A DNA stretch of 24,440 bases, from positions 1 through 24,440 of the forward strand of contig JABCSY010000060.1 in the NCBI GenBank assembly GCA_018238625.1. Reading direction: 5' to 3'. Positions 14-22,332 of the stretch are shown here, one piece after another (positions within the stretch are counted from its first letter, which is position 1; every line of letters begins with the position of its first letter). The notes beneath the pieces are model-generated. The model had not been told where the DNA came from, did no database searches, and saw only the letters and a list, made by a program, of their open reading frames with translations. Origin of the DNA: Promethearchaeota archaeon. GTDB taxonomy: Archaea; Asgardarchaeota; Lokiarchaeia; Sigyniarchaeales; SOKP01. The translations under genes and the position numbers were made by a program.

Positions 14-49
14 TATATTAACATCTATATTAACATCTATTTTAACATT
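14..49. repeat. Short 12-bp-period direct repeat (TATATTAACATC x2 plus a degenerate third copy TATTTTAACATT)
   Basis: Read directly: 14-25 and 26-37 are identical; 38-49 differs at 2 positions; runs into a long T tract. Confidence 0.6.
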
Positions 50-237: not shown

Positions 238-2277
238 TTAGAATTTATACACCAAACTTTTGTTTATTTGCTCCACCAATTTCGAATTATCATATAATAA
301 ATTAAATGAATTATTAATTTGATTTAGGTTTTCCTTCAATTCTCCCTTTAAATAAGTAAGGTATTTTGGCAGATCAAAACGATTTTTAAAATTTTTTATT
401 TTTATATCTGGAACCGAATTAGGAAAATTTAATAATTTATTTAATTCATCATAAGGCTCGAATTGTAAATATAATTGAGCAACTAAAGAATTTGTTAGGC
501 TTTGATAAAAATTTAAGAGCTTTTCGATTTCTAATAATCGAATTTCATCGTTTGGTTCTTGGAGAATTTCAAATCTTAATTGCGATAAAAATTGAATTAT
601 TTTACCTAGATAAGAAAGCGATGTGGGAAAACTCTCTGGCATGGGTAGTTTTTTTATAAAGCTTCCGTTAAACCTTAAATAGCCTCCAGACATATGAAGA
701 GTTCCGTATAATGCTTTAAATACCAAATTAATAATATCTGAATTCATTATCGAAAGTAAACAAAAATAGTCGTTTGTTTTAAATGAAGGTACACTTAAAA
801 AGTAAAGCCCCGTTAAATTAGCATAAATACCCGGATCATACACACAAGTAATATCCTTTGCAATTTCCCTAAAAATTATTTTTTCACTATTAAGGTAATC
901 CCAAACTTTTTTTTGCTCTGATTGAAAGCTAAAATATGATATTTCGTGATTTACTTTTGCGATTTTTATGCGTTTTTTGAAATTTATATAATATTTACCA
1001 ACATTTCCAGTTCCTATCAATATTAAATCTTTATTAGAAGTCTTATTTTTACTGATATTTTTGAAGTTTTCTGCCCATTTTATAAAACCAAAAGGACGAT
1101 ATATAATTTTTAAACCCTTTATAACTTGTATCATTGGTTTGAAATTTGTATATAAGAAGTTAACTAAGTTTATATCAGGGGATGTTGGTATTACAGATGA
1201 AGGAAGGTTTTTTATTGAATCCTGGGGTAATTTAGTTATTTTTTCGTTTTGCAAATACTTAAAATCTTTCATGCTCTCAAACTTTTTTATTAGAATCGTA
1301 TTGCTTGTGTTAGTTCTTTTTTTAAAAGAAATTATTATTGGATAAGCCGCTGTTTTTTGAAATATCGGTAATGAAGATATATTAATAATTTCCTTAAGCT
1401 CTGTATCTCGCAATATCATCTCTCTAATTTTCAGACCATAATCGGCTGATAAGAATTTATTAGTAGTTAAAAAAGATAGGCATCCAACTCCATTTTTCAA
1501 CAATTCTATCGATTTTTCAATAAAAATAACACTTAGATCAAACAACCCATAAGCAGATTCAAATTTTTTTTTGATTTTTTTTTTGAATTCAATATCTAAT
1601 ATCTTCTTATTTTCGACATAAGGAGGGTTTCCGATTATGATATCAATACCGGTTGAATCTAATTCAAGAAGATAATCTAAATTAAATATATTAAAATTCA
1701 GGTTGAATTTGTTAATAAAGTTTTCAATTTCGTCTAAATTTGAATTGGTACAAGCAAAACCGTCTAAAAAAGGGGACTCCACATCCGAATAAAGCCATAT
1801 TATTAGTCTTAGTTTTGATATTAAGTATGCTGACTTATCAATTTCGATTCCGTATAAATTGTTTTGAATTATTTTTTTCTTAATATCGTAATCGGAGTAC
1901 CTTAACTCAAATACTTTATTGATATTAAAAAGAACTTCAGCAATGGCAATCAAAAATCTTCCCGTGCCACAAGCTGGGTCTAGAATTTTAATATTTCTTA
2001 TTTTTGTTTCAAATCTATCTTTAAGACTATTATTTTTTGCGAGTAATTGTTTTAGACTGGCGTAATCACAGTTTGTTTGAAAGACATTTCTTAACTCTAA
2101 AAAATCGTCAAAAAAGATTCTAAAAATGTTTAATACCATAAAGTCCGCAATTGGTTGAGGAGTATAAACTACTCCACGATCTCGATTATTCTTCTTTTCG
2201 GTAACTATCTCATTTTCGAATTTATTAATTATATTTTCCAAAATTTGTATCCTATTTTTAGAATATGGCATTTTCAT
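238..2277 (-). CDS. N6-adenine DNA methyltransferase, gamma class (Eco57I/TaqI-like) with a C-terminal target-recognition region and no evident nuclease domain
   Basis: Motif X GVVYTP, motif I ILDPACGTGRFL, YGIEID, motif IV IIGNPPY, and a TaqI_C-like segment (KIIFREIAK...YD...LLSIMNS...IKKLPMP). Only about 30 aa precede motif X. Confidence 0.88.
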   Translation of the reverse strand: MKMPYSKNRIQILENIINKFENEIVTEKKNNRDRGVVYTPQPIADFMVLNIFRIFFDDFLELRNVFQTNCDYASLKQLLAKNNSLKDRFETKIRNIKILDPACGTGRFLIAIAEVLFNINKVFELRYSDYDIKKKIIQNNLYGIEIDKSAYLISKLRLIIWLYSDVESPFLDGFACTNSNLDEIENFINKFNLNFNIFNLDYLLELDSTGIDIIIGNPPYVENKKILDIEFKKKIKKKFESAYGLFDLSVIFIEKSIELLKNGVGCLSFLTTNKFLSADYGLKIREMILRDTELKEIINISSLPIFQKTAAYPIIISFKKRTNTSNTILIKKFESMKDFKYLQNEKITKLPQDSIKNLPSSVIPTSPDINLVNFLYTNFKPMIQVIKGLKIIYRPFGFIKWAENFKNISKNKTSNKDLILIGTGNVGKYYINFKKRIKIAKVNHEISYFSFQSEQKKVWDYLNSEKIIFREIAKDITCVYDPGIYANLTGLYFLSVPSFKTNDYFCLLSIMNSDIINLVFKALYGTLHMSGGYLRFNGSFIKKLPMPESFPTSLSYLGKIIQFLSQLRFEILQEPNDEIRLLEIEKLLNFYQSLTNSLVAQLYLQFEPYDELNKLLNFPNSVPDIKIKNFKNRFDLPKYLTYLKGELKENLNQINNSFNLLYDNSKLVEQINKSLVYKF

Positions 2278-4854: not shown

Positions 4855-5742
4855 TCACTTTTTTTTAAACGATTGAATAATCTCTACAGGGTTGCTTTCT
4901 ATATGGTATTTCTTTTGAAAGAAGTTACACACATTTGTAATATCTTTTTCTAAAATTGATCTTGCGTTTGGATGATCTGATGAAATCCATTGTAGCCAAT
5001 CGATTATTAATATATTTCCTTTATTATCTACTACTATATTGAATTCTCCTAAATCTCCATGGATCATATCCGCTTCTTGATAAATTATTTTAATTTGTTT
5101 AATGATCTTGTTAAAAATCTTACTTGGATTTTTAAGGTTTTGATAATAGGCTAATTCTTTTCCTCTTAAGTATGACATTACAATCATATGTCGATTAAGC
5201 CCTATTGGTTTAGGTGTATCTACTTTAAGATCGTCGAGTTTACCTAAAGCGTCAAATTCTTTTTTAGCGGCAAGTCTATTAACATACAACCAAGATAAAT
5301 GTTTTCGGTTATCAAGAAAACTTCTTAACATCTTAATGTTTTTAAAACTTGTCCTTCCCATCCTAAATATTTTTAAAGCGTAAATATTTTCGTTATCGTC
5401 CATACAACCATAGACATCTGATTCTTTACCTTTACCTATCATAGGTCCTAACTGACTAATTGTCCCTCTCTCAACCAAGGTGTGCAGACCTAGTACGTCG
5501 TATCCAATAGAATTAAGGGTATAGCCTATATCGTTTTTAGAGGAATCTCTTACTATTAATTCTAATTTATGTACCTTTTTAAGACGATATAAGGTTTCTT
5601 CTATTGGATTCCTAGAATAGAATTTTATATTATTTATCGTAACATATTTAGATCTTTTCATTCCGATCTCAATTCCCACTAAAACTCTTAAATCTTCCTT
5701 ACCCAGCTTTTTTTTCTCCAGTAATTTTGCTGCTTCAGCCAT
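4855..5742 (-). CDS. rio2: RIO2 atypical protein kinase/ATPase (small ribosomal subunit maturation)
   Basis: N-terminal winged-helix region (LRVLVGIEIGMKR..YV; GYDVLGL), P-loop IGKGKESDVY, KIFRMGRTSF, catalytic IHGDLGEFNI and IIDWLQ. Confidence 0.93.
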   Translation of the reverse strand: MAEAAKLLEKKKLGKEDLRVLVGIEIGMKRSKYVTINNIKFYSRNPIEETLYRLKKVHKLELIVRDSSKNDIGYTLNSIGYDVLGLHTLVERGTISQLGPMIGKGKESDVYGCMDDNENIYALKIFRMGRTSFKNIKMLRSFLDNRKHLSWLYVNRLAAKKEFDALGKLDDLKVDTPKPIGLNRHMIVMSYLRGKELAYYQNLKNPSKIFNKIIKQIKIIYQEADMIHGDLGEFNIVVDNKGNILIIDWLQWISSDHPNARSILEKDITNVCNFFQKKYHIESNPVEIIQSFKKK

Positions 5743-5838: not shown

Positions 5839-6624
5839 TCAAAAAATATATTTTCTGTAGGTTGCCATAAATGAGATGAGTTTTTTCGCGTTTGGTAACT
5901 CAAAAATCATAATACCTGTAATAATTACAATTAAAAATATAAAAATATCATTTTGTCTGATATAATAAATTGAAGCGGTTGATCCATCTTGGAATAAAAA
6001 CAAGAAAATTCCTTGCTGTAGATAAAACGCTATTCCACTGCAAATTATCACGCCTAATAAGGAATAAACAATAGCTTGATGTTCGCTCTCAAAGATACCT
6101 ATCGCAGTAATAATAACAAAAGAAATCAAGGAAATTATTATTAATATATACGAAATATAGAGCCAATTACTGTATATATCCGCACTAACTTTAAAATTAT
6201 TGCCAATATTCGTCCAAAACAAAGAAGAACCTAAATTTAGAGCAAATAATATCGGTAAAATTAAAGAAACTATTAGAAAAATTAAATATAACCTTATTGT
6301 AATAAATCTTGTAAACTTCTGGTATTCTCTTTCGTCTTCTTGTTTAATTTCATTTAACATTGATTCCAATTTGTTTTGAATATAATCTGGAACTTCTTTC
6401 TTTAAAATTGATAATTGGAAATGAATGTGAGGATAGCTGGACATTAAATTTTCTAACAATTTATAACCTTTATTAAGCCTTTCTTTAGAACTTTTTGGGC
6501 CGTTCCAGAGGTAGATAATTTTACGCTCTTCATCCAAAATTGCGCATAAATCGTGAAAAAGTAAGCTTGTGTTTTCCTCGACCCAGCTTTTATTAGGTTC
6601 GTTGAAAATGTATGTCTTCAGCAT
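5839..6624 (-). CDS. Membrane protein with an N-terminal gelsolin-like domain and about 4 transmembrane helices
   Basis: SLLFHDLCAILDEERKIIYLWNGPKSSKE resembles the gelsolin repeat core (SL...D..ILD....IY.W.G..SS..E). Four hydrophobic stretches at about aa 110-137, 154-178, 184-203 and 227-243. Confidence 0.65.
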   Translation of the reverse strand: MLKTYIFNEPNKSWVEENTSLLFHDLCAILDEERKIIYLWNGPKSSKERLNKGYKLLENLMSSYPHIHFQLSILKKEVPDYIQNKLESMLNEIKQEDEREYQKFTRFITIRLYLIFLIVSLILPILFALNLGSSLFWTNIGNNFKVSADIYSNWLYISYILIIISLISFVIITAIGIFESEHQAIVYSLLGVIICSGIAFYLQQGIFLFLFQDGSTASIYYIRQNDIFIFLIVIITGIMIFELPNAKKLISFMATYRKYIF

Positions 6625-6743
6625 AGATAATCAATAATTTTTAACTCTAAATAATTTATATTTTTTTCTATATCTTAACTATGTTGTTAAAATATTAAAA
6701 TTAGAAAAAATTAAAATAACTAAAAGAAATCTGTTGAAAATAG

Positions 6744-7640
6744 TTATTCTTTTTCAATTCTCTCCTTAATTTCTTCCCATAGGGCGTTAATATATTGTTT
6801 GTAATCCTCAATTTGACTATCAGAGATTGTTCTAAATCTTTTTTGGACTTTTAAATATTCCTCAATAGGTTTGCGTTTTGTTGGGTCTAAAAATCTTTTG
6901 CTATCTTTGGATAAAACAAACTTACCGTTAATTACTTCGTATAACGGCCAGAAACCCGTTTGAACTGCTAGTCTCCCGATCTCAATTGAATCTTTTGGAT
7001 TATATCCCCATCCCGGAGGGCAAGGAGCAAGAATGTGTATATATTTTGGACCATAAATATTTTGAGCGTTCTTAAATTTATCGTATAGATCAAGTGGATA
7101 CGACGAAATGGCTGTTGCAACGTAAGGGATGCCGTGTGCTTCCATAATTTTAGCCATGTTTTTTTTGTATCCCACTTTACCAGTAGGAGTTGTAGTGCTA
7201 AAAGCACCAGGTGGTGTACTTCCACTTCTTTGAACACCTGTATTCATATACGCCTCGTTGTCATAACAAGCAAAAATAAAGTTGGTTCCTCTCTCAGCCG
7301 CTCCGCTCAAGCTCTGGATTCCAATATCTACGGTCCCACCATCACCCGCAAACGCAACGACGTTAACATCGGTTAATCCTTTGTCTTCAAGAGAAGCTAC
7401 AATTCCAGAAGCAGAAGCACCCGTAGTAGCAAAAGGTGTGTGGAGCACAGAAACCTTAGTGGTACAGAACCCTTGCATTCCGTGTAAAACAGTTAAACAC
7501 GAAGCGGGTACAGTAATAATTGTTCTTGGCCCCAGGGCTTTTAGAGCAATTCTATATAATAACGCCATTGAACATCCTGCGCACGCTCTAGTGCCGGGGT
7601 AAATGAACTCTTCTTCAGGTATATCCATTAATTTAACCAA
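6744..7640 (-). CDS. porB: Pyruvate/2-ketoisovalerate:ferredoxin oxidoreductase beta (TPP-binding) subunit
   Basis: ACAGC, TPP motif GDGG...DIG...YDNEAYMNTG.QRS, and PCPPGW. SD AGGAGG lies upstream in the porA 3' end. Substrate specificity is not resolvable. Confidence 0.93.
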   Translation of the reverse strand: MVKLMDIPEEEFIYPGTRACAGCSMALLYRIALKALGPRTIITVPASCLTVLHGMQGFCTTKVSVLHTPFATTGASASGIVASLEDKGLTDVNVVAFAGDGGTVDIGIQSLSGAAERGTNFIFACYDNEAYMNTGVQRSGSTPPGAFSTTTPTGKVGYKKNMAKIMEAHGIPYVATAISSYPLDLYDKFKNAQNIYGPKYIHILAPCPPGWGYNPKDSIEIGRLAVQTGFWPLYEVINGKFVLSKDSKRFLDPTKRKPIEEYLKVQKRFRTISDSQIEDYKQYINALWEEIKERIEKE

Positions 7641-7646
7641 TATATT

Positions 7647-8942
7647 TTAACCTCCTTTGAAATATTCTGATTCATCATAATCCCCTAACTCTTCCAATCT
7701 TAAGCCAATAAAATCGGTTTCATGTGATATTGTTCCTATTTCGGATTCTTCAATTGCTTTATACACGCCCTTTATAATGTGTTGATCAGTAATATCTCTA
7801 CCCCCTAACCCTACTATAAATCCTTTAATAAAGGGACTATTTTTCAAACCATACAAAGCAGCTTTCAACTCGTACGATAATACGCCTTCGTATCCATAAC
7901 CAATATCCCTATCAAAAACGACTACTTGCTTTTTATTTTTGAAAAACTCTCTTAAATACGAAACGGGAAACGGTCTAAATAGTTTCAAGCTCACTAAACC
8001 AATTTTTAACCCGTCTTTTCGAAGTTTTTTAATCGCATTTCGAGCTTGAGAAGCCACTGAACCCATTGCAAAAATAATAGTATCCGCGTCTTCAGTTAAG
8101 TGCGTTTTATAGATTCCATTTCCGTAAGTTCGCCCAAATTTATCGGCAAATTCGTCATGAACCTCTTTGATCACTTCAATTGAATTTTCAAGAGCTTTTT
8201 GCATCGCATATCTATACTCAAAATACCCGGGAGCGATTCCTTCTTCACCCCGATTTATTAAATTAGGCGTGGTGACAGGATCTATACCTTTCACTTGAGA
8301 CATATCTGATAAATTTATATGATGTTTTAGAGGAGGTAAAAAATCATCGACATCTTCTTGTTTTTCTAGGATTACGGGCATCATGGTATGGGATAATATA
8401 TAACCATCATAAGCTACAACTGTTGGAAGAAAAACTCTTGAGTCTTCCGCAATTCTAAAAGCTTGGAGATTTGTATCGTAAATTTCTTGATTGTCCATAC
8501 AAAACATTTGAATCCAACCAACATCACGCATAGTAATAAAGTCTTGGTGATCCGTCCAAACCGACCAAGGGGCTCCTGTTGCTCTAGTTGCTAAATTTAT
8601 TATTATAGGTAATCTATTGCCCGCAGCCCACGGTAACATTTCATACATTAACATTAATCCGTGAGAGGAGGTTGCAGTACCCACTCTTGACCCTGTAGCT
8701 GAGGCCGCGCAACATACGGCTAACGCAGAGTGTTCTGATTCTACTTTAACAAAACGGGTGTTCATTTTGCCCTTCGAAATAAAATCCGCTATTTTTTCGA
8801 CTACCGGACTTTGAGGGGTTATTGGGTAGGCCGCAACTACGCCTACTTTAGCTTGCCTAAGGGCTTGAGCAGCCGCATGGTTTCCTGTTAAAATCTTAAC
8901 TTTAGAACTAATTTTTTCGGATTTCTTTTCTGTAACTGTCAT
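7647..8942 (-). CDS. porA: Pyruvate/2-ketoisovalerate:ferredoxin oxidoreductase alpha subunit
   Basis: GNHAAA, AYPITPQ, VESEHSA, TATSSHG, LFRPFP and GLGGRD. ATGA overlap with porD. Confidence 0.94.
   Translation of the reverse strand: MTVTEKKSEKISSKVKILTGNHAAAQALRQAKVGVVAAYPITPQSPVVEKIADFISKGKMNTRFVKVESEHSALAVCCAASATGSRVGTATSSHGLMLMYEMLPWAAGNRLPIIINLATRATGAPWSVWTDHQDFITMRDVGWIQMFCMDNQEIYDTNLQAFRIAEDSRVFLPTVVAYDGYILSHTMMPVILEKQEDVDDFLPPLKHHINLSDMSQVKGIDPVTTPNLINRGEEGIAPGYFEYRYAMQKALENSIEVIKEVHDEFADKFGRTYGNGIYKTHLTEDADTIIFAMGSVASQARNAIKKLRKDGLKIGLVSLKLFRPFPVSYLREFFKNKKQVVVFDRDIGYGYEGVLSYELKAALYGLKNSPFIKGFIVGLGGRDITDQHIIKGVYKAIEESEIGTISHETDFIGLRLEELGDYDESEYFKGG
7650..7657 (-). promoter_or_regulatory. 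Shine-Dalgarno motif (AAGGAGGT) for porB within the last codons of porA
   Basis: Minus strand reads AAAGGAGGTTAAAATATA-TTG. Confidence 0.6.
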
Positions 8943-9247
8943 TCAATTTTCACCTCTACCATTTCAATTGCTTTTACAGGACATTCTTCCATACAAATTC
9001 CACATCCTTTACAATACTCCAAATCTATTTTAGGAGGGATGGTCCTAGTTACTACTGCTTCTGGGCAATAAAGCCAACAATTAAAACAGCTAGGTTTTCC
9101 TGATTTTACCGGAATGCATTTTTCTAAATCAATTACGGGTTTTTTAGGGCTCCACGAACCCGTTTTCCCAGCTTCTCCCTTTACGGGTTTTTGAACGGAA
9201 CCTAAGATTTTTTGATAATCCTTTTTCGTATTAGCCATAGGTATCAC
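8939..9247 (-). CDS. porD: 2-oxoacid:ferredoxin oxidoreductase delta subunit (2x[4Fe-4S] ferredoxin-like)
   Basis: KTGSW..KPVID.EKC, CFNCWLYCP and YCKGCGICMEECP. Start is GTG 9247 or ATG 9238. Confidence 0.92.
   Translation of the reverse strand: MIPMANTKKDYQKILGSVQKPVKGEAGKTGSWSPKKPVIDLEKCIPVKSGKPSCFNCWLYCPEAVVTRTIPPKIDLEYCKGCGICMEECPVKAIEMVEVKIE
8950..8956 (-). promoter_or_regulatory. Shine-Dalgarno motif (GAGGTGA) for porA within the porD 3' end
   Basis: Minus strand reads GAGGTGAAAATTGA-ATG, with an ATGA start/stop overlap. Confidence 0.65.
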
Positions 9248-9441: not shown

Positions 9442-12081
9442 TTGGTGATGGATATAGATTATAATAAAGAAGAAGTTAGAGAAAAATTCAAAGATCTATT
9501 TGAACACTCTTTGGATTTAATTTATGTAAATGATTTATACGGTAATTTTCTAGATGCAAATGAATTAACTTTAATTTCTCTCGGCTATGAAAGGAAGGAC
9601 ATTCCTAATTTGACTTTTACTGATTTGCTTGACAGAGATAGTTTAATTAGGGCATATAATTCATTAAAGGAAATAAAAAAAAGGGGGAAACTATCTGCCA
9701 AGAGTGAATACAAGCTTAAAACAAAAACTGGCGATTACATATTTATCGAAACATACAGCATTCCCTTAAAAAAAAATGGTAGATTGTATGGAATATTAGG
9801 AATAGCCAAAAACATCACCAAACGGAAAAAAACAGCACAAAAATTAAAAGAATCGGTAGAAATGTTCAAAGCTTTGTTTAAAGAAGGTCCAATTCCTACT
9901 TATACTTGGAGAAAAATAGGAGAGGATTTTGTTTTCGTTGATTTCAATAACGCCGCAGATAAAATAACTCAAGGGCATGTAGAAACTTTTTTAGGAACTA
10001 ACGCGTCTGAGATGTACAAAGATCGTCCAGATATTTTGAAAGATTTACATCTTTGCATAAAAGAAAAAACTCATATTACGCGAGAAATGAAGTATAAATA
10101 TGATTTCTCAAAGGACGAGAAATATTTACTGGTAAATTACGGTTGTGTAGGTCCTGATTTAATAATTGTGAGCACAGAAGATATAACGGAAAGAAAAGAG
10201 GCAGAAGAGAAATTAAAGGAATCTGAACTTAAGTATCGCAATATGATTAATAATCTAGACGTTGGTTTTTACCAAGTATCTCTAGATGGAACGATGATAA
10301 ACCATAATCCAGCCCATAATACGATTCTAGAATACGATCAATCGGAAAGCCTTATAGGTAAAAAAGTAACAGATTTTTGGCAATTTCCCGAAGATCGAGA
10401 GGAATATTTAAAGCAGATATTAAAAGAAAGTTATGCTAAGAATTACATCTGCCCATCCCTAACGAAAGAAGGTAAAAAAGTTGTTGTTCAATTAAATTCT
10501 CATTTAATGCGGAATAACGAAGGAAAGCCGTTTGGTATCGAAGGAACTTTTATCGATATTACAGAAAAGTATAATTTGGAGCAAGGATTGAGAGAATCTG
10601 AAGAGAAGTTCAGATCTATAGCCGAACAGTCGTTATTGGGCATATGTGTAATACAAGATGATTTGGTTAAATACATTAATAAACAATTTGCTGATTTAAT
10701 AGGATATACGGTCGAAGAAGTAAAAGATTGGGCCCCTGGTTGGTTTGTAAACGTCATTCATCCAGATGATAGAGATTGGGTAGTAAGTCAAGCTACAAAG
10801 AAACAGTTGGGTTCGAACGATGTAAAAAATTATTATCAATATCGTCTAATAAATAAATCTAAAAAAATTATTTGGTTAGATAATTTCTCTAAAACAATTT
10901 TATTTAGAGGACGAAATGCGAACTTAGTTACTGTTGTAAATATTACGGAACGGAAAATTACCGAACAAAAATTAAAAGAATCAGAGAGAAAATATCGTAA
11001 TATCTATGAAAACACTCCTTTTTCAGTAGTATTAATTAATTCACAAGGGGTCGTTGTAGATGCTAATCCAACAACCGAAGTAATGTTTGGTTATAAAATA
11101 GACGAATTGATTGGTAAGAAGTTTAAGGATCTTTCAATAATACATCCAGATTACTTATCAAGAATTTTCACGCTTTTTAAAAAGTTTGTAAAAGGAGAAA
11201 AAATACATCGAATAGATATTCAAATACAAAGAAAGAATGGGACGATTTTTTGGGCAAATCTTCAAGCAGCCCTTATGAAAATTAGGGATGTAACATATGT
11301 TCAAGCTTTATTTACAGATATCACTAAGAAAAAAGAAGCTGAATTCCTTGTTGAGGAGGAATTAAGAAAATTGAAGGAACTTGATCAGCTAAGAAAAAAT
11401 TTAATTTCAAGAGTTTCGCACGAACTAAAAACTCCTCTCGTTTCAGTTAGTGGAGGTTGTGAACTTCTTTTAACTCTGTATGGAGAAAAATTAAGTAAAG
11501 AAGAATTAGAGTTAATAGAACTTATTGAAAAGGGGGGTAAAAGGCTAAAAAAATTAGTCGATAATTTAATTGATATTTCTAGAATTGAATATGGTAAATT
11601 CAAATTACAAAAAGAATCCAACGATCTTAGCGAGCTTATTCGGGATGTCTCGAAAGAATTAAGATATCTATTGAGAGAGAGAAAATTTGATCTAAACCTT
11701 GCGCTTCCCGAGAGCCTTTTTTTAAAAATGGATAAAATTCGGATCGAACAAGTAATCATGAATTTATTATCTAATGCCATAAAAAACACACCTCCAAAAG
11801 GGGACATAAAGATAGTTTTAAAAAAAAAAGAAAATTGGGCTGAAATATCTATTAGCGATACAGGGATAGGGCTTAGTCAAGACGAAATGGATTTGATATT
11901 CACTAGGTTTGGCAAAATAGAACGGTATGGCGAGGGTTATGAATTTATCGACATCCAAGGCACTGGGTTAGGATTATATATCTCAAAAGAGATAGTAGAT
12001 TTGCACGAAGGTGAAATTAGAGCGGAATCAGAAGGAAGAAATAAGGGGAGTACATTTATCGTAAAACTACCAATATCTTAA
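9442..12081 (+). CDS. Soluble sensor histidine kinase with five PAS domains, HisKA and HATPase_c
   Basis: Five PAS repeats joined by (D/N)IT.(R/K)...L(K/R)ES..(K/M)(Y/F) linkers; H box SHELKTPL, N box NLLSNAIK, G1 DTGIG, G2 GTGLGL. No TM segment and no receiver domain. Start may be ATG 9448. Confidence 0.95.
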   Translation: MVMDIDYNKEEVREKFKDLFEHSLDLIYVNDLYGNFLDANELTLISLGYERKDIPNLTFTDLLDRDSLIRAYNSLKEIKKRGKLSAKSEYKLKTKTGDYIFIETYSIPLKKNGRLYGILGIAKNITKRKKTAQKLKESVEMFKALFKEGPIPTYTWRKIGEDFVFVDFNNAADKITQGHVETFLGTNASEMYKDRPDILKDLHLCIKEKTHITREMKYKYDFSKDEKYLLVNYGCVGPDLIIVSTEDITERKEAEEKLKESELKYRNMINNLDVGFYQVSLDGTMINHNPAHNTILEYDQSESLIGKKVTDFWQFPEDREEYLKQILKESYAKNYICPSLTKEGKKVVVQLNSHLMRNNEGKPFGIEGTFIDITEKYNLEQGLRESEEKFRSIAEQSLLGICVIQDDLVKYINKQFADLIGYTVEEVKDWAPGWFVNVIHPDDRDWVVSQATKKQLGSNDVKNYYQYRLINKSKKIIWLDNFSKTILFRGRNANLVTVVNITERKITEQKLKESERKYRNIYENTPFSVVLINSQGVVVDANPTTEVMFGYKIDELIGKKFKDLSIIHPDYLSRIFTLFKKFVKGEKIHRIDIQIQRKNGTIFWANLQAALMKIRDVTYVQALFTDITKKKEAEFLVEEELRKLKELDQLRKNLISRVSHELKTPLVSVSGGCELLLTLYGEKLSKEELELIELIEKGGKRLKKLVDNLIDISRIEYGKFKLQKESNDLSELIRDVSKELRYLLRERKFDLNLALPESLFLKMDKIRIEQVIMNLLSNAIKNTPPKGDIKIVLKKKENWAEISISDTGIGLSQDEMDLIFTRFGKIERYGEGYEFIDIQGTGLGLYISKEIVDLHEGEIRAESEGRNKGSTFIVKLPIS

Positions 12082-12104: not shown

Positions 12105-12692
12105 CTATAATATTTTAGCCATGTTAAAACCTTGCTCAATTAACTCATAGTTAAGGTTTCCTAATTTTTCGCCCAATTTTTTCAAAACTACATCTTTTAG
12201 GTTTTCCAAGTGCAGGTCTGGTAACGCTTTTGAGAGCAAACCTAAAATTGGTGTATTTATTACAGGGTTTCCGTCTATCGTTAAATTTTTTTCAAGTGCC
12301 AAGTTATTAATATCTGCAACAATCACTTTTATATTGCCACTAAGATGAAACTCTTTAACAAAATATTCGGGATTTTTATTGGAATTTATTATAAAAATTC
12401 CATTTCTTTCCAAAGACGATGCCACTTCTTTAGTTAAAACAGTCTCATCGAATACGATTAAAATATTTGGGTTTTTAATTTGAGCGCGATCGTATACTTT
12501 TTCGGTTCGGGATAATTTTACATATGCTTGAACAGGAGCGCCCCTTCTTTCAGCTCCAAACGAAGGATACGCTTGGACATCAATGAAATTACCACTTAAG
12601 TATGCTGCTTCAGCTATTATCTCACAAGCAGTAACTGCCCCCATACCCCCTCTTCCGTGTAAAACTATTTTTATCAGTTCCAATTCGCTCAT
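12105..12692 (-). CDS. porC: 2-oxoacid:ferredoxin oxidoreductase gamma subunit
   Basis: HGRGGMGAVT, PSFGAERRGAPV and NTPILG motifs of PorC/PorG. Confidence 0.93.
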   Translation of the reverse strand: MSELELIKIVLHGRGGMGAVTACEIIAEAAYLSGNFIDVQAYPSFGAERRGAPVQAYVKLSRTEKVYDRAQIKNPNILIVFDETVLTKEVASSLERNGIFIINSNKNPEYFVKEFHLSGNIKVIVADINNLALEKNLTIDGNPVINTPILGLLSKALPDLHLENLKDVVLKKLGEKLGNLNYELIEQGFNMAKIL

Positions 12693-15621: not shown

Positions 15622-18390
15622 ATGGTAAAAACTAATAAAAAAGTCTCAAAAATTATGGTAATAAGTATTATTGCTTTAATTACTAGCGGAGCATTGCTGT
15701 TTCTTTTAATGATACCCGCACATGGACAAGCTGCAAATCAAAAAAATATTTTAGTTATTAGTAAAGGAAATGATAAAACTATTATTCAAAGATTAAGAAT
15801 TGATACGGACAATTTTAACATTTCAGTTGTTGCGGATACAGAGCCCCTTAATTCTATTGGTTCATGGATTGACAGCGTAATAATCATTGATGCTTTATTA
15901 GACTCTACGAAGCAAAATCTTCTTTCAAATTTTGTGGATGGGGGTGGTTCAGTTGTTATATTAATGGGCCAGAATTTGTTTAACAATGCAACCCTTTTAG
16001 GAAAATTGGAATTAATTAACAATACTTTATTTGAAGCAGAAAAAAAGATAAACCAAGAACAAAGCCTTTTTGTCATAGCAAACACCAATCATCCAATAAG
16101 TAAAAATATGGATTGGAATTCTGCGCCTAGTATGAAAATCGATAATATGACCTATATACCCATTGAAAGTTTAAATGCGTCAGTTGAGAGAATTATTGAT
16201 ACGTATCCTATTTCAAAAAATTTAGAGATTAACGCTAATCGGCGACCAGTTTTATTAGAAAAAGCAAAGGGAAGCGGAAATATTATCTTATTTACTGGTT
16301 GGTTGGAAGAAGGAGCAAATCTAGATTTCAAACTGTGGCCATACTTTAATTATCTTTTATACACGATGATTTTTGAAAGTTTAAACCTAACTTTTCAAAC
16401 ATATTCAGCTTGGCCCTACTCTCCAGTACCTCACCTAATAGAGCAAATTATACTACTTATAGTCGTTATTGTATTGGCTATTCTAGCTGTAGCGTTATTT
16501 GTTGTAATGAAAAGAAAATCATCAACAGAAATGGATCGAGCTACAATAGAAGCATTAAAACAACAAGCAGAAGAAGAAGAACGAAAAAGGTTGAAAGAAG
16601 TAGAAGATCTCCAAAAAAAATTAGATGAACATGTTGACTTAAAAGACGATTGGGAAGTTATTGGAATTCACAGACAATTAGGAGGTTTTCTCTTTACGCT
16701 CTTTATGGCTTTATTGTTGATCATTCCACAGTTATTAATTTCAAATTTTATAATGCCTCAAATAATTCAGCCATATCCACAAGCAGCAGGATGGTACTAC
16801 TATGCATACAATATTTTCCAAGTAGCGTGGTTAATCTTTGATTTTGGCACATCTTTCGCATTAGCAAAGTTTTTTTCTCAATATAGGGGAGATAATCCAG
16901 AAAAAGCAATTCATTACATTCAGATTTTCGTGTGGTGGCAATTGTTTACAGGATTAGCACAAATTACGATTTTCGCATTTATTGGATCAATCGTCTTCCC
17001 ACAGATTCAATTTGCAGCGCATATGAGTTGGATTTTTATCACTTTTTCTTTAGTACAATATCCTGGTTTCTTCTTAGTATTTATGTTCACATTCCAGGGA
17101 TTGCAGAGAACAGATTTACATCTTATTACTTATGTTTTATGGGAAGTATTTTGGTTGCTTATTGGACAAATGGTTTTTTGTTATTTGGGACGTATGTGGG
17201 GTGCTGCAAATCCCATATTTGGTGAAGCACTCGGTGCGGGGATAGGATATGCATTAGCTAGATACTTTGATTATTGGATGACATTTCTCTTTTCTATGTA
17301 TTTATTTAAAAAACAAGGCTATTCACCTAAGACAGTATTTAGAACTGATTTTTCCAAGGAAGAATTTAAAGAATCTATAACATTTGGATCGAAATTAGCC
17401 TTTGGATCCTCATTTGTTCAAATTGGATGGTTCATACAAATAGTAATAACGAGTATGTTTATTGCTAACTATTCAAATGAACTTGGGTATTTTAACTTAG
17501 CATGGAATGTTGGTCTAATTGTTATGATCGTTGCATTATATGGCAATTCTTTATTAGGGGCATTTAGTGAGTCTTATTCCCATGGAAAAACTTCTTTAAC
17601 AAAATTATATATTTACCAAGGGTTTAGGTGGGGTAATTACTTTGCTTTTTTTCTAATATCAGTTATATTTGCAATTGGAGCTAAATTTATTGTGGGTGCT
17701 GCTGGTCCAGAATACGGAACTCCAGCTGTGAGATTCTTAATTCCACTATTAATATTTAATGGATTTGGAGTCTATTCATGGATAGGAGATGCTATATTTA
17801 CGGGAACAGGAAAAACAACTCTATTAGCGCTTATTTGGATACTAGAATTCGTAATAAGAGCAGTTTTACTAATAGTTTTAGTAATGTGGCTTAAAGACAT
17901 GATAGCAGTGATATATGCTTATATTCCTGCCGTATTTGCTAAGGGAGTTGTCCTCTGGGTTGTTGTTAAGTATAAGATTACAGATTATAAGCTATATCCA
18001 TTTAAATCGTTTTTAACACCTTTTCTTGCCGCTATTGGAAATTATTTAGTATTATCATTCTTTGGAGACCTTATCTGGACTATTGAATTAGGGGATAAAA
18101 TCTTAAACACAGCAATAATATTTGTGATTGGAATTTTTCTGTTCATGTATTTCTTTGCATTTTTAGATGGTTTATTCGGAGGATACGACGATAATTCTTT
18201 GAAAGAATTTGAAAGAGCAGCAAATCTTACTAAAGGGCGTTTTGGAGTCTTTCCAAAAACATTATATAAGGCAGCTAAAGTTGGAAGTAAAATTAGCCCG
18301 TTTCATAACAAATTTAAAATTGATATTTATGAAGAGGCTATGCAAGAAGCTTACGAGTTAACGCTAGAGAAAAAAGTTTTAAAAATCTAA
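15622..18390 (+). CDS. Large membrane protein: signal peptide, alpha/beta ectodomain, TM, charged coil and a polytopic MOP/Wzx-like (oligosaccharide flippase) domain
   Basis: Basic N-terminus and hydrophobic helix ending AHG-QA; soluble domain with L.NFV.GGG.V and GNIILF; TM at about aa 275-296; E/K-rich stretch; then about 12-14 hydrophobic helices including FDFGTS.AL.KF, which resembles Wzx/MATE-type flippases. Confidence 0.6.
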   Translation: MVKTNKKVSKIMVISIIALITSGALLFLLMIPAHGQAANQKNILVISKGNDKTIIQRLRIDTDNFNISVVADTEPLNSIGSWIDSVIIIDALLDSTKQNLLSNFVDGGGSVVILMGQNLFNNATLLGKLELINNTLFEAEKKINQEQSLFVIANTNHPISKNMDWNSAPSMKIDNMTYIPIESLNASVERIIDTYPISKNLEINANRRPVLLEKAKGSGNIILFTGWLEEGANLDFKLWPYFNYLLYTMIFESLNLTFQTYSAWPYSPVPHLIEQIILLIVVIVLAILAVALFVVMKRKSSTEMDRATIEALKQQAEEEERKRLKEVEDLQKKLDEHVDLKDDWEVIGIHRQLGGFLFTLFMALLLIIPQLLISNFIMPQIIQPYPQAAGWYYYAYNIFQVAWLIFDFGTSFALAKFFSQYRGDNPEKAIHYIQIFVWWQLFTGLAQITIFAFIGSIVFPQIQFAAHMSWIFITFSLVQYPGFFLVFMFTFQGLQRTDLHLITYVLWEVFWLLIGQMVFCYLGRMWGAANPIFGEALGAGIGYALARYFDYWMTFLFSMYLFKKQGYSPKTVFRTDFSKEEFKESITFGSKLAFGSSFVQIGWFIQIVITSMFIANYSNELGYFNLAWNVGLIVMIVALYGNSLLGAFSESYSHGKTSLTKLYIYQGFRWGNYFAFFLISVIFAIGAKFIVGAAGPEYGTPAVRFLIPLLIFNGFGVYSWIGDAIFTGTGKTTLLALIWILEFVIRAVLLIVLVMWLKDMIAVIYAYIPAVFAKGVVLWVVVKYKITDYKLYPFKSFLTPFLAAIGNYLVLSFFGDLIWTIELGDKILNTAIIFVIGIFLFMYFFAFLDGLFGGYDDNSLKEFERAANLTKGRFGVFPKTLYKAAKVGSKISPFHNKFKIDIYEEAMQEAYELTLEKKVLKI

Positions 18391-18505: not shown

Positions 18506-21418
18506 ATGCCTTTTGAAGATATTAAATTTAAAGATCTCACTCCAATGATGCAACATTGGTATTCCGTTAAAAAGAAATACCCCGATACAATATTGGCTTA
18601 TCGCATGGGAGATTTTTACGAGTTTTTCTACGACGATGCCGTTCGAGTTTCAAATCTTTTAGGAATAACTTTGACAAAAAGAAAGATTGGATCGGATTCG
18701 TATCCCTTAGCAGGAATACCACATCACGCTGGCTCCTATTTAAATAATTTAATTAACTTAGGAGAAACGGTAGTAATTGTCGAACAATTAGAGGATCCCG
18801 CAACAGTAAAGGGAAGAATAGTTAAACGAGGTGTCGTTAGAATATTATCCCCGGGCACTGTTATCGAGCCAGATATGCTTAAATCAAACGAAAACAACTA
18901 TATTTGTTCTATTGTTAAAGAAAGAAAGGGATTCGGAATCGCTTTCGCCGATCTCTCAACGGGCGAATTCGTTACAACTGAATTTTTTAAGAGCGAACAA
19001 GATCCTCTAGAAAAAATACTAAGCATTTTCTCTCAATACAACCCAGTTGAAGTTATTGTACCTTCGGAACTCAAAAAGGACGAACATCTATTTCTATTAT
19101 TAACCGATTTAAACGATGCTCTAATTAAATCTTACGAAGATTACGTGTTTAATTACGACGAAGCTCAAGATTTAATTAAACGACATTTCAACATTTCCAA
19201 TCTAAATAGTTTTGATTTAGAAAATTGTGAAATGGCGGTTCAAGCTTCTGGTGGTTTATTAGCTTTTTTAAAAGAAACTCAAAGGGATGTAATTCCTAAT
19301 CTTTTTAAAATAAATCTCATTCGTGAAGAAAAAGTTTTACACTTAGATTATATTACTCAAAGAAATTTAGAACTAGTTAACTCACTTTGGGAAAAGGGGA
19401 AGGATACAACGTTGTATTCAATTTTTAATCAGACTCATACACCTATGGGTGCTCGCTTATTAAAAAAAATTATCCTTCAACCTTTAACAGACATAAATGA
19501 GATAAATCAAAGAATTAATATAGTTCAAAAGTTTAAAGACGATGTTTTCTTAAGGTCTGAATTAAGGGAAGAATTAAAGGTTATTGGTGATCTTGAAAGG
19601 TATGTAAACCGAATTAATTACTCTCGAAATTCCAACGCTCGCGACTTAATTAACTTAAAAAATTCTTTGGAAAAAATTCCTAAAATTAAAAAAATCTTAG
19701 AAAAATCTAAAATTCAGGAAGTCTCAAAATTCATTGATAAAATTAATGATTTTAAAGAAGCTCGAAGCGTAATAGAAGTCTCTATAAAAGACGACGCGCC
19801 ACTCACAGTCAAAGAGGGCCACTTGATTAAGACAGGATTTAACGAAAAGATTGATAAATTGAGAGATATCCTCCAAAATGGTAAAAATTACGTTCTTGAT
19901 TACGAAAAACAGCAGAGAGATAGATGGAAAGTAAATTCAGGTTTTAAAGTTGGACATAATAACATTCTTGGATATTACATACAAATTACTTTAAAAACGC
20001 TAAGATCTATCACAAAAATACCAGATGAATACATTGAACGCCAAACTCTCAAAAACGCGAAAAGGTACACCACAAAAGAACTAAAAGAGCTAGAAGAAAA
20101 GATTGTTCAAGCGGAAGAACAGATAAACGATTTGGAATACGAAGTATTTTGTATAATTAGAGAAAAGATTGTAAAAGAAACATTAAAAATCCTAGAAACT
20201 GCTAAAAAAATAGCATACATTGATGTTCTTGCTTGTTTTGCAGAAGTTGCAGAAAAATACGACTACTGTCGACCAAAAATCAATAACGAAGGTAAAATTG
20301 TGATTAAGGAGGGAAGACATCCCGTTGTTGAGCAATTAAGATTGTCTGAAAAGTTTATTCCTAACGATTGTTATTTAGATACTGATAAAGAGCAAATTTT
20401 AATGATTACTGGGCCGAATATGGCCGGAAAATCTACATATTTACGACAAGTTGCCTTAATTTGTATTATTGCTCAAATGGGGTGCTTTGTCCCGGCCAAA
20501 TCTGCTACTATAGGTGTTATTGATCAGATTTTCACTCGTATAGGCGCATCTGATGATTTAGCGAGGAAATTAAGCACATTTATGATAGAAATGACTGAAA
20601 CGGCGAAGATATTAAATTTTGTGACGAAGAAAAGCCTAGTTATAATAGACGAGCTTGGAAGAGGCACGAGCACTAGTGACGGTCAAAGTATCGCTTTAGC
20701 AACTCTCGAAAAATTACACGAATTGAAGGCAAAGACGCTATTTAGTACTCACTATCACCAATTAACTGAGATAAATCTACCAAGAATAAAAAACTATCAT
20801 TTAGACATTATCGAAAATGACGATGGAAGCATTAATTTCATTCGAAAATTGCAACCAGGAAGCACTGATAAATCCTATGGAATTCACATTGCGAAACTAG
20901 CAGGAATCCCAGACGACGTTATTATTAGAGCGTTTGAAATTTTAGACCAAATCGAGGAAAAAGATCCATTTAAAGCTACAGTAGAAGAAAACGGCAATGG
21001 AAGATTAGCTAATAAATATTACGACAAATTTATTCAAGAGAAAAAGAAAGCGCTAGAACGTTTGGATTTAGACTTAGATGTAAAACAGCGCGAGATGAAC
21101 GAGTGCGAAGCCGAACTAATTAAAAAGGAAAGAGAATTAGGACAAAAAAAATTTGAGGTTGAGAAAACGAAAGAACAGCTAACAACCCTTAAGGATAAGT
21201 CAGAGATCACTAACAAACAAGAAATTAGTCTTAAAAAGGAAAAAAAAATTGTGCAAACTACCTTTTTTAAACCAATTGTATTGAAAGAAAGAGCGGATAA
21301 CGAAAACTTTAAAGCGCTAATTAGAAAAATCGAAGACATCGATATTAACTCTATGACTCCAATCGACGCCATGAAAAAGCTAATAGAGCTTAAAGAGAAG
21401 ACTCGGAATATTAGTTAA
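18506..21418 (+). CDS. mutS: DNA mismatch repair protein MutS (MutS1 type)
   Basis: LTPMMQ, mismatch-recognition GDFYEFF, Walker A TGPNMAGKST, STFM.EM, Walker B IIDELGRGTST, THYH, SYGIHIA.LAG and C-terminal D.N.MTP.DA. Confidence 0.97.
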   Translation: MPFEDIKFKDLTPMMQHWYSVKKKYPDTILAYRMGDFYEFFYDDAVRVSNLLGITLTKRKIGSDSYPLAGIPHHAGSYLNNLINLGETVVIVEQLEDPATVKGRIVKRGVVRILSPGTVIEPDMLKSNENNYICSIVKERKGFGIAFADLSTGEFVTTEFFKSEQDPLEKILSIFSQYNPVEVIVPSELKKDEHLFLLLTDLNDALIKSYEDYVFNYDEAQDLIKRHFNISNLNSFDLENCEMAVQASGGLLAFLKETQRDVIPNLFKINLIREEKVLHLDYITQRNLELVNSLWEKGKDTTLYSIFNQTHTPMGARLLKKIILQPLTDINEINQRINIVQKFKDDVFLRSELREELKVIGDLERYVNRINYSRNSNARDLINLKNSLEKIPKIKKILEKSKIQEVSKFIDKINDFKEARSVIEVSIKDDAPLTVKEGHLIKTGFNEKIDKLRDILQNGKNYVLDYEKQQRDRWKVNSGFKVGHNNILGYYIQITLKTLRSITKIPDEYIERQTLKNAKRYTTKELKELEEKIVQAEEQINDLEYEVFCIIREKIVKETLKILETAKKIAYIDVLACFAEVAEKYDYCRPKINNEGKIVIKEGRHPVVEQLRLSEKFIPNDCYLDTDKEQILMITGPNMAGKSTYLRQVALICIIAQMGCFVPAKSATIGVIDQIFTRIGASDDLARKLSTFMIEMTETAKILNFVTKKSLVIIDELGRGTSTSDGQSIALATLEKLHELKAKTLFSTHYHQLTEINLPRIKNYHLDIIENDDGSINFIRKLQPGSTDKSYGIHIAKLAGIPDDVIIRAFEILDQIEEKDPFKATVEENGNGRLANKYYDKFIQEKKKALERLDLDLDVKQREMNECEAELIKKERELGQKKFEVEKTKEQLTTLKDKSEITNKQEISLKKEKKIVQTTFFKPIVLKERADNENFKALIRKIEDIDINSMTPIDAMKKLIELKEKTRNIS

Positions 21419-22332
21419 GGTAAAAGGATAGGAAATACCCAAACAACTAACGAATTATATATGTAATAAGCAGTAAAAAGAATTATAATTATTATTCTAA
21501 TCTGCTTTTTTCTTTTTCCTTCTGTTAAGCTTTCGAAAAAAATGATATATAAGAAACTAATAAACATTAAATGGGAAGGTTGTAAAGCTTTCCAAAGAAT
21601 GGAGTCTATAATTGTTAAACCTTGAATGTTTGTATCACTACTCAACCAATTGTTCAACATCTGTGAAAGGAAATCTGGAAATATAAGATAAGGCAAACAG
21701 ATAATAAAGAATGGAATAAGATAATATAGCAAATCCCTAAATTTAATTTTCCTTGAAGCTATAATTACCGGAATGTACAAAATTGAATTGATCTTAAATG
21801 TAGCAAGAGTAAAAAAAATTCCAGCAAGTAATTTTTCATCGTCATTCACAAAAGAATAAGACAGAAACAGAAAAAAAAGTATTACAAAATTGACATTATT
21901 AAACCACCCATCAATTAAATAACCTATCGTTAATAATCCGTAAAAAATAAAAAGATCCTTGCGATTTCCAAATATTTTATAAGATTTTAATATAATATAA
22001 CTCACAGAAATTAATCTTAAAGCGTCCCATACATAAACTCCTATCTCAAAAGGAATTAGCCCCATAGGTAAAAACAAAAAGTACCAAAAATATAGATAGT
22101 ATGGCGGCCAATCAGGAATTCCAGGGGGCATCTCCGCGACTTTATAAAAGTCTATTAAGCCATTATGGAACCCTCTTAATAAAATGTTAAAATCGACATC
22201 GCGAGAGATTTCTAATAATAGCGGAAAATCATATAAATTGATAAGAATCCTTAATGCAATAAATAAAACTGTGATAAAAGCTAAAAAACATATGAAATAT
22301 TTATGAAAAGGGTATTCTCTTTCGATTCTCAT
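21415..22332 (-). CDS. GT-C fold membrane glycosyltransferase, GT87/DUF2029-like
   Basis: Polytopic; DF after TM1, PPY.Y....LFLP, W..L, NNVN and AG....LA.FK pattern typical of GT87-like proteins. Shares a TTAA stop overlap with mutS. Confidence 0.7.
   Translation of the reverse strand: MRIEREYPFHKYFICFLAFITVLFIALRILINLYDFPLLLEISRDVDFNILLRGFHNGLIDFYKVAEMPPGIPDWPPYYLYFWYFLFLPMGLIPFEIGVYVWDALRLISVSYIILKSYKIFGNRKDLFIFYGLLTIGYLIDGWFNNVNFVILFFLFLSYSFVNDDEKLLAGIFFTLATFKINSILYIPVIIASRKIKFRDLLYYLIPFFIICLPYLIFPDFLSQMLNNWLSSDTNIQGLTIIDSILWKALQPSHLMFISFLYIIFFESLTEGKRKKQIRIIIIILFTAYYIYNSLVVWVFPILLP

Follow-up and report, generated by a model that had tools for sequence, protein, structure and literature searches.

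How are the actin filaments of Asgard archaea attached to the cell membrane? Filaments of Lokiactin, the Asgard actin, are located at the periphery of the cell and follow its protrusions (PMC9834061), and cultured Asgard archaea form actin-filled protrusions and crawl (PMC9834061, PMC13716822). In the available sections of the Asgard crawling and actin papers cited here, the actin regulators named are all soluble, namely profilins and gelsolins; BAR-domain proteins and an Arf GTPase appear there as candidates that co-purify. These sections offer no account of how Lokiactin filaments are attached to the membrane. The question is raised by one gene in a stretch of 24,440 nucleotides from a Promethearchaeota archaeon (NCBI GenBank assembly GCA_018238625.1, contig JABCSY010000060.1, positions 1 to 24,440 of the forward strand), and this whole stretch is what we call the window.

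The gene is a single ATG-initiated open reading frame (ORF) at 5839..6624 on the minus strand, which the ORF listing and its translation give as a protein of 261 amino acids. A sequence-only reading of the window had described this protein as a gelsolin-like domain fused to a four-helix membrane module, and had put it forward as a candidate link between actin and the membrane. Here we follow up that description by profile searches, hydropathy analysis, and a survey of related loci. That the domain binds Lokiactin, and that the membrane-anchored protein holds filaments against the membrane's inner face, is the reading that we put forward, and we would give it about an even chance of being right.

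The N-terminal domain and its likeness to gelsolin

The residue pattern noticed in the sequence-only reading (S-L-L..D...ILD, then E.P, then a charged linker) is present letter for letter in the translation. It runs S20-L-L-F-H-D25-L-C-A-I-L-D31-E-E-R-K-I-I-Y-L-W40-N-G42-P-K-S-S-K-E48, with a later E77-V-P79, after which the sequence reads as a linker of acidic and basic residues (N91...K103). The sole overlapping ORF is an opposite-strand frame of 59 amino acids (6200..6379), for which there is no support. The parts of the gene and its product are given below, each with the evidence on which it rests.

5839..6624, minus strand: whole gene, 261-residue protein plus stop codon (5839-5841); ORF, relatives of about 260 residues, purifying selection.
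6349..6624, minus strand: residues 1-92, putative gelsolin-homology (ProGel-like) domain with D25, D31, W40-x-G42-P43 and P79; PF00626, PDB, profile search, hhalign.
6292..6348, minus strand: residues 93-111, charged linker passing into a basic juxtamembrane stretch (K103, R106, R111); sequence, count of lysine plus arginine.
6232..6291, minus strand: residues 112-131, hydrophobic segment 1, predicted to run from inside to outside; hydropathy, with a peak at about residue 120 in representative clusters.
6163..6231, minus strand: residues 132-154, loop 1, putatively extracellular, flanked by conserved W137 and W154; alignment, 0.87 lysine plus arginine per sequence.
6094..6162, minus strand: residues 155-177, hydrophobic segment 2; hydropathy.
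6076..6093, minus strand: residues 178-183, short acidic turn (E179-x-E181), putatively cytoplasmic; alignment.
5992..6075, minus strand: residues 184-211, hydrophobic segment 3, which holds most of the conserved motif; hydropathy, conservation.
5977..6024, minus strand: residues 201-216, Y-L-Q-Q-G-I-F-L-F-L-F-Q-x-G-S-T, at the predicted outer end of segment 3; pairwise identity.
5947..5991, minus strand: residues 212-226, loop 3, putatively extracellular, with D226 at its end; alignment, count of lysine plus arginine.
5902..5946, minus strand: residues 227-241, hydrophobic segment 4; hydropathy.
5842..5901, minus strand: residues 242-261, basic C-terminal tail E-x-P-N-x2-K-L-x2-F-x3-Y-x-K-x-I-F, putatively cytoplasmic; 61% identity.
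6632..6672, minus strand: conserved A/T-rich block 8-48 nt 5' of the ATG, resembling a transcription factor B recognition element (BRE) and TATA box; comparison of 74 upstream regions.

As a single sequence, the window protein resembles gelsolin below the usual thresholds. Pfam family PF00626 reaches 15.8 bits (E 0.012) on the whole protein and 17.9 bits (E 0.0028) on residues 1-95, both under its gathering score of 21, so the Pfam check named in the sequence-only reading did not succeed on this protein by itself. A phmmer search of the PDB with the window protein puts ProGel (7c2f_B) first, at an E-value of 0.075 that is not significant. Such single-sequence scores would fit a resemblance due to chance or composition, the N-terminus then being an unrelated small alpha/beta domain, and so would hhalign probabilities of only 82-84% over about 50 residues. 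We consider this extremely improbable, since three independent profiles, those of the core family, of the distant relatives, and of Pfam, converge on one family in one register, with E-values reaching 4.4e-13 in the PDB and 1.9e-6 among 1.84e9 proteins, and since the signature residues D31, W40 and G42 are invariant.

The convergence is seen at every level of comparison. PF00626 is matched at E<=1 by 29 of the 47 family members (best 1.3e-4), the next Pfam family by three members only; of the 34 profile-search matches compared with Pfam, P0129, a full-length relative, scores 20.7 bits, and P0193, of 103 residues, is the sole one above the PF00626 threshold, at 26.1 bits. When the family profile is run against the PDB, ProGel 7c2f_B comes first (E 5.9e-4) and villin 9jus_v second (E 6.4e-4), and gelsolin-family chains make up the top 20 matches and 28 of the 32 at E<=10, the remaining four being RbcX (three) and a nucleoside diphosphate kinase (one). 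The profile of the distant relatives finds villin at 4.4e-13, ProGel at 6.1e-7 and the Lokiarchaeota 2DGel at 7.8e-4, with 33 of its 40 matches in the gelsolin family. No Sec23/24 or cofilin chain occurs among the PDB matches of either profile.

An exhaustive HMMER search of the family profile against 1.84e9 representatives (clusters at 50% identity) gave 122 matches at E<=1e-3. Nine of these are large proteins of 669-834 residues (E 1.9e-6 to 6.2e-4) that Pfam identifies as villins or gelsolins with five to six Gelsolin repeats, seven of the nine also carrying a villin headpiece, and a tenth Pfam-confirmed match is a soluble two-repeat gelsolin of 318 residues. Aligned to the nine villins by hhalign, the family gives a probability of 81.6% (E 1.1e-5, residues 18-65), and the family together with its distant relatives gives 84.4% (E 7.1e-6, residues 18-70). 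The register sets 'LLFHDLCAILD...KIIYLWNG' opposite the villin 'LLNHDDCYILD...KIYVWKG'. These profile alignments span residues ~18-70 only and not the whole domain, which, like the scores of the single protein, weighs against the assignment.

Several residues place the domain within the gelsolin pattern. D31, W40 and G42, invariant in 47 sequences, correspond to the 'DWG' or 'WxG' signature of gelsolins named by Akil et al. in the available sections of PMC7444086 and PMC9433394. The later part of the domain holds an invariant P79 with hydrophobic residues at +3 and +7 that, by eye, parallels the villin consensus E-P-x2-F-x3-F. Eukaryotic gelsolin and villin repeats (PF00626) share with it a strand, the WxG hairpin, a long helix, and a later P-x2-hydrophobic-x3-hydrophobic stretch. 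A hydrophobic-periodicity map, too crude to decide on the fold, shows a helix signal at about residues 53-63 and then a strand signal at 65-73. Each protein has one matched gelsolin stretch in the Pfam and PDB searches, collinear with the 94-residue chain 7c2f_B. D25 is also invariant. E48, aligned with a glutamate of the villin helix that we take to be a gelsolin calcium ligand, is a further point of disagreement: the position holds E, D, K, A, T or V across the family. Because E48 varies in this way, calcium control of the domain appears unlikely, or is at least unproven.

The profile matches to villin, gelsolin and ProGel, the hhalign results and the invariant D31, W40 and G42 together lead us to accept that residues 1 to ~92 are, on sequence comparison, homologous to a gelsolin repeat, nearest to the single-domain ProGel type, and would adopt a gelsolin/cofilin fold. 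On this point the sequence-only reading, which had likened the first ~90 residues to a gelsolin repeat, is borne out. ProGel of Thorarchaeota (7C2F chain B) is likewise a single gelsolin-homology domain of ~90-95 residues with the D...WxG signature and with calcium-ligand positions that are apparently not conserved, and it is the top solved-structure match both for the window domain (~35% identity over 43 aligned residues, counted by eye) and for the family profile, residues 24-69 of the family aligning with 28-73 of ProGel. The two differ in that ProGel is a free soluble protein of 94 residues, while the domain in the window protein continues into a linker, four hydrophobic segments, and a tail that is also conserved.

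Among the search matches there is also a free-standing gelsolin-like domain of 92 residues (P0206; family profile E 9.1e-8, PDB villin E 2.8e-6), which resembles a soluble ProGel-type counterpart of the domain found in the membrane proteins. Three other short matches, P0207, P0221 and P0238, look like fragments of membrane-bound members.

The membrane module and the Asgard superfamily

The second half of the protein was examined by Kyte-Doolittle hydropathy, averaged over the 47-sequence family alignment with a sliding span of 19 residues. Four hydrophobic segments stand out at about residues 112-131, 155-177, 184-211 and 227-241, with span means up to 2.7, and they are kept in all 39 of the near-full-length relatives aligned. 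The first 100 residues are not hydrophobic (19-residue mean <=0.6), so there is no signal peptide. Lysine and arginine are concentrated toward the two ends of the module, with a mean of 2.9 per sequence in residues 101-111 and 3.4 in the 20-residue C-terminal tail, against 0.87 in each of the two long loops (132-154 and 212-226). By the positive-inside rule, an established generalisation, such a distribution would place both termini, and hence the gelsolin-like domain, in the cytoplasm, and a cytoplasmic N-terminus is also favoured because no signal peptide precedes the ~110-residue domain. The four transmembrane helices, the missing signal peptide, and the cytoplasm-facing domain of the sequence-only reading all agree with these data.

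Conservation within the module is far from even. Among 79 sequences, residues 203-212 (Q-Q-G-I-F-L-F-L-F-Q) have a mean pairwise identity of 82%, compared with 61% in the C-terminal tail, 50% in the gelsolin-like domain, and 39-54% in the other membrane parts. The stretch Y201-LQQGIFLFLFQ-x-GST216 is thus the most conserved of the protein and the four-helix module is not a bare anchor, a point that goes beyond the sequence-only reading. From the highly conserved YLQQGIFLFLFQ-x-GST motif, at the predicted outer end of segment 3, we conclude that the module probably does more than anchor, and it may contact itself, a partner, or lipid. Conserved polar residues also occur in or near the hydrophobic segments (E179, Q204, Q212, D226 and E242), of which E179 is at least 90% conserved in the family alignment and absent from the divergent copies L075, L077 and L080.

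Searches of Pfam, NCBIfam, PADLOC and the PDB assign the module to no family, and no Pfam family in the membrane part (tetraspanin, MARVEL, claudin, two-pore-domain potassium (K2P) channel, SLATT and others) is matched by more than two of the 47 members. The membrane part has no PDB matches other than weak ones, those of the distant-relative profile to K2P channels (TREK-2 at E 0.007; range 0.007-0.009), which are probably compositional. The K2P filter motif is T-x-G-Y/F-G, and none was seen by eye in the membrane part. An internal duplication of segments 1-2 as 3-4 was rejected, hhalign giving it 0.5%, and a mean-field direct-coupling analysis of 283 sequences (effective number 152) returned top pairs that were scattered and too noisy for contacts. 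A role as a defence effector was also rejected, as the SLATT and PspC-TM matches in Pfam fall in single members only and PADLOC found nothing in six of seven proteins, the seventh (P0213) having one weak match, to PD-T4-6 (E 0.0013), in its low-complexity C-terminal tail.

How widely is this protein found? Among 5.8e9 proteins, a word-indexed search identified 164 relatives at E<=0.01, and of the 120 listed almost all are 259-262 residues long. All 19 of the organism-labelled relatives among those listed are Asgard 'hypothetical proteins', from Lokiarchaeota, Promethearchaeota, Hodarchaeota, Hermodarchaeota, Odinarchaeota and Thorarchaeota. In GTDB r232, taken at one genome per species, we found 89 relatives and retained 80 loci (L001-L080), of which 69 bear Asgard phylum names in their titles, 10 are titled 'uncultured archaeon', and one is bacterial. 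The bacterial title, Candidatus Nanopelagicaceae bacterium (Actinomycetota), belongs to L012 (DATKTW010000096.1), which carries the whole Asgard-type neighbourhood in identical order at 53-87% protein identity to the window; as its gene-for-gene synteny extends to the other Asgard loci, L012 most likely represents archaeal DNA that was mis-binned into the metagenome-assembled genome of a bacterium. The family is restricted to Asgard archaea, and the gene is probably single-copy. A search with the divergent L077 copy for orthologues in cultured strains gave nine matches, none of them from a named cultured organism. The window protein has no entry in the ESM Atlas, and a cluster search there with one homologue (P0007) led back to the archaeal cluster of P0007 itself and to none that bears a name.

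The ORF is a genuine, conserved gene under purifying selection. Across the 21 pairs formed by the window copy and its six closest relatives, the ratio of nonsynonymous to synonymous substitution rates (dN/dS) is 0.13 in residues 1-95, against 0.37 in residues 96-261.

Beyond this core family lies a larger group. The exhaustive search returned a core tier of 23 full-length representatives at 240-388 bits and then, after a gap in score, a second tier of 250-395-residue proteins that match almost the whole profile at 35-148 bits. Of 78 matches with 225-449 residues, 77 have at least three hydrophobic peaks, at about 115, 165, 192 and 235, and 53 have exactly four; the lone exception is the soluble two-repeat gelsolin. 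The architecture is therefore common to 77 representative clusters (50% identity) and is that of a whole Asgard superfamily and not of one gene, which again goes further than the sequence-only reading. Because hhalign aligns the core family with the second tier over its full length (100% probability, E 2.8e-40, 242 columns), the gelsolin-like domain and the membrane module must have been fused by the time of their common ancestor. Four named distant relatives carry Promethearchaeota, Lokiarchaeota or Thorarchaeota labels. Across the superfamily it is the gelsolin-like domain that is the conserved part (D25 invariant, G42 in at least 90%), and the distant relatives retain an F/Y-L-F-x-F core in the membrane part while the remaining module diverges.

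Long C-terminal tails rich in K/E or K/P/T occur in many distant members and a few core members (P0122, 384 residues; P0129, 310 residues) and could form a second interaction surface. The tail of P0122 is a K/E-rich, coiled-coil-like stretch of ~120 residues, and that of P0198 consists of K-P-S-T-T-K-K-P-A-T repeats; low-complexity cytoplasmic C-terminal extensions are found in P0122, P0129, P0198, P0164 and P0213, and the window protein is without one.

The position of the conservation peak bears on what the domain is for. A gelsolin-like domain might have been recruited to a role other than actin, as in Sec23/24, and here would serve as a cytoplasmic regulatory or docking domain, the four-helix module being the functional core of a channel-like or lipid-handling oligomer or of a receptor for an envelope component. 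The strongest conservation does lie in the membrane module and not in the gelsolin-like domain (82% against 50%), which fits a membrane-centred function, and the conserved polar residues in and near the hydrophobic segments would suit such a core. All significant affinities of the domain are nevertheless with the actin-binding branch (ProGel, 2DGel, villin, gelsolin, CapG and adseverin) and none with Sec23/24, purifying selection is stronger on the domain than on the membrane part, and superfamily-wide it is the domain that is kept and the module that diverges outside its aromatic core. E179, one of the polar residues, is missing from the divergent copies, and the module resembles no family in the databases searched. 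We regard this explanation as doubtful, though it has to be taken seriously.

Possible actin binding at the membrane

What would a gelsolin-like domain do if it is fixed at the membrane? Akil et al. 2020 (PMC7444086) describe three Asgard gelsolin architectures, ProGel, 1DGelX and 2DGel, and the statements on them that follow refer to the available sections of that paper. ProGel binds actin at the site between subdomains 1 and 3 in a cofilin-like pose, decorates the sides of filaments and bundles them, and is without calcium sites; it neither severs filaments nor alters the viscosity of F-actin.

In the mechanism that we propose, the gelsolin-like domain, facing the cytoplasm on a linker of ~20 residues, would bind Lokiactin as a homologue of ProGel. 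Because the domain is confined to the membrane, even weak binding to the sides of filaments would suffice to hold them, or to concentrate monomers, at the inner face, and the actin bundles of the cortex and the protrusions would thereby be coupled to the lipid bilayer. The fold, the topology, the actin binding, and the preference for tethering over capping or severing are all things that we infer.

Besides the weak points of the gelsolin assignment given above, four observations speak against this proposal. ProGel binds G-actin weakly and bundles filaments only at very high concentration, and the gelsolin-like domain of Sec23a is not known to bind actin (PMC7444086, Fig. 4H legend). The conservation peak in the membrane module, discussed above, is the third. 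The fourth comes from Lokiarchaeum ossiferum, for which a 2025 preprint and a 2026 Nature paper on Asgard crawling report, in the sections available, nine gelsolin-homology proteins; five gelsolin homologues were recovered by co-immunoprecipitation with Lokiactin, and none is described there as a membrane protein. The preprint also states that co-immunoprecipitation under-represents membrane proteins.

The protein might instead be an active regulator of actin at the membrane, one that caps, severs, sequesters or nucleates filaments and so localises turnover to the cortex or the tips of protrusions. Asgard gelsolins of one or two domains do sever, cap, bundle or sequester in vitro, and 1DGelX, which is also a single gelsolin domain with an extension, severs without calcium (PMC7444086). 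The nearest solved relative is, however, ProGel, which did not sever filaments, and not 1DGelX or domain 1 of 2DGel. The stretch that joins the domain to the membrane shows, by eye and with no motif scan run, neither a WH2-like motif nor a second actin-binding element. We therefore think active regulation improbable, and favour tethering.

Another protein close in layout is 1DGelX (GelX) of Asgard archaea, which likewise begins with a single gelsolin domain and gains additional function from a C-terminal extension. By description only, and in the available sections of PMC7444086 and of the 2025 preprint, domain X is a predicted coiled coil or disordered and the protein was handled as soluble, while here four hydrophobic segments take its place.

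Eukaryotic gelsolins and villins have three to six repeats and are soluble and calcium-regulated, in contrast to the one domain of this membrane protein, and they are known to attach to membranes only peripherally, through phosphatidylinositol 4,5-bisphosphate (PIP2). In eukaryotes the links between actin and membrane are made by ERM proteins, talin-integrin and supervillin, which are functional analogues in that their job, holding actin filaments to the plasma membrane, is the one proposed here. These systems rely on FERM, talin or further domains together with transmembrane partners that are separate proteins, where the Asgard protein would use one small polypeptide; kinship in sequence with them is not expected. 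An Asgard longin/sybindin membrane fusion, known by its label only, offers a parallel of another kind, a small eukaryote-type cytoplasmic domain joined to a membrane module, although its soluble domain is longin/sybindin and not gelsolin-like.

Has such a protein been described before? A full-text literature search, with subscription journals outside its scope, found no transmembrane or membrane-anchored gelsolin-domain protein, in keeping with the sequence-only reading, which knew of no characterised integral-membrane gelsolin; its one match concerns gelsolin bound to PIP2. The word 'transmembrane' is absent from the main text of Akil et al. 2020 (PMC7444086) and from Akil et al. 2022, and the 2026 Nature text on Asgard crawling contains none of 'transmembrane', 'membrane anchor' and 'tether'. 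In the available part of the PMC9834061 supplement the asCOG labels read 'Gelsolin domain' or 'Gelsolin family protein' and nothing else, and 'fused to gelsolin' does not occur. The family may correspond to an existing asCOG labelled 'Gelsolin domain', a candidate being cog.006527, which has no Pfam match in that table. We regard the union of a gelsolin domain with a membrane anchor as a novel arrangement within a domain family already described, and not as something categorically new.

The surrounding locus, and what the fusion would mean

Upstream of the gene lie the delta, alpha and beta subunits of a 2-oxoacid:ferredoxin oxidoreductase (OFOR) of the pyruvate/2-ketoisovalerate type (6744..9247, minus strand), and downstream a Rio2-type kinase (4855..5742, minus strand). 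The order OFOR delta-alpha-beta, gene, Rio2 is kept on one strand, OFOR-beta being found in 77 and Rio2 in 79 of the 80 loci, and wherever one of them is lacking, a contig end cuts the locus. On the upstream side the median of the estimated gaps is 115 bp. On the Rio2 side it is 38 bp; 34 of 79 loci have a gap of 12 bp or less there, and the window has one of 96 bp. Because the gap to Rio2 is short in many loci, co-transcription with Rio2 is plausible in many genomes.

Such constancy could mean that the protein is a partner of its neighbours, a membrane dock for the Rio2-type kinase or for OFOR. The conserved order and the short gaps to Rio2 would suit that idea. However, the whole region of ~15 kb is syntenic, including unrelated genes such as a methyltransferase, a phosphoesterase and a type IIG/PglX-like DNA methylase, and we therefore give adjacency little functional weight. 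Rio2 and OFOR are, moreover, housekeeping enzymes found throughout archaea, and in the window itself the gap to Rio2 is one of 96 bp. We consider a role as a dock for these neighbours very improbable.

The gene seems to have a promoter to itself. In 74 upstream regions anchored by position, a block of the form ~TATAGAAAAAAATA[T/A]AAA.TA..T.AG.GTTAAAA is fixed at -48 to -8 from the start codon, and it persists where protein identity is only ~50%. The block resembles a BRE/TATA element of archaea, and the leader would be very short; it would then be the gene's own promoter. A scan for bacterial-type promoters and terminators, unsuited to archaea, found no excess over shuffled sequence, and the repeats around the gene are A/T-rich chance pairs only. 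A tblastn search of phage and plasmid collections gave no match to the gene, and there are no tRNA or Rfam matches in the 24,440-nt window.

Other features of the window are recorded here in their own right. The OFOR gamma gene (12105..12692, minus strand) is parted from delta-alpha-beta by a gene on the plus strand (9442..12081) for an 879-residue multi-PAS histidine kinase, and this split arrangement recurs in most related loci. At 238..2277 on the minus strand lies a gene for a 679-residue Eco57I/MmeI-like adenine DNA methyltransferase (type IIG, PglX-like) with a TaqI-like specificity domain, found in the same position in nearly all related loci at 38-93% identity; positional conservation of this kind is unusual for a gene of restriction-modification or defence. 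An ORF of 922 residues (15622..18390, plus strand) matches a polysaccharide-biosynthesis (flippase-type) family over residues 390-639, and has ~390 N-terminal and 280 C-terminal residues without a Pfam or NCBIfam match. Mismatch repair genes of bacterial type follow on the plus strand, MutS (970 residues) at 18506..21418 and MutL (614 residues) at 22542..24386, and between them, on the minus strand, is a 305-residue GT87-like membrane glycosyltransferase (21415..22332), the end of which shares 4 nt with the MutS stop. The window opens with a repeat (14..48) in which the 12-nt unit TATATTAACATC occurs 2.9 times.

We return to the actin-membrane link. A conserved membrane protein with a putatively cytoplasmic, ProGel-like domain is a candidate for this link that can be tested at the bench. 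Should the domain not bind actin, the family would be of interest as the second case, next to Sec23/24, in which the gelsolin fold serves a purpose other than actin. If tethering is true, the fusion of a gelsolin domain with a membrane anchor would be a solution that eukaryotes apparently did not keep, and it would bear on the origin of actin-membrane coupling before eukaryotes.

More tentatively, and at a strength well short of an even chance, the proteins might together form an old, Asgard-wide superfamily of integral-membrane actin binders, the first transmembrane gelsolin-domain proteins of any organism, which directly link Lokiactin to the membrane in the cortex and in crawling protrusions, while the outward aromatic motif lets events at the surface (adhesion, a change in the envelope, or curvature) act on the attachment of actin. 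Were that so, they would represent a one-polypeptide forerunner of the coupling between adhesion and cytoskeleton in eukaryotes.

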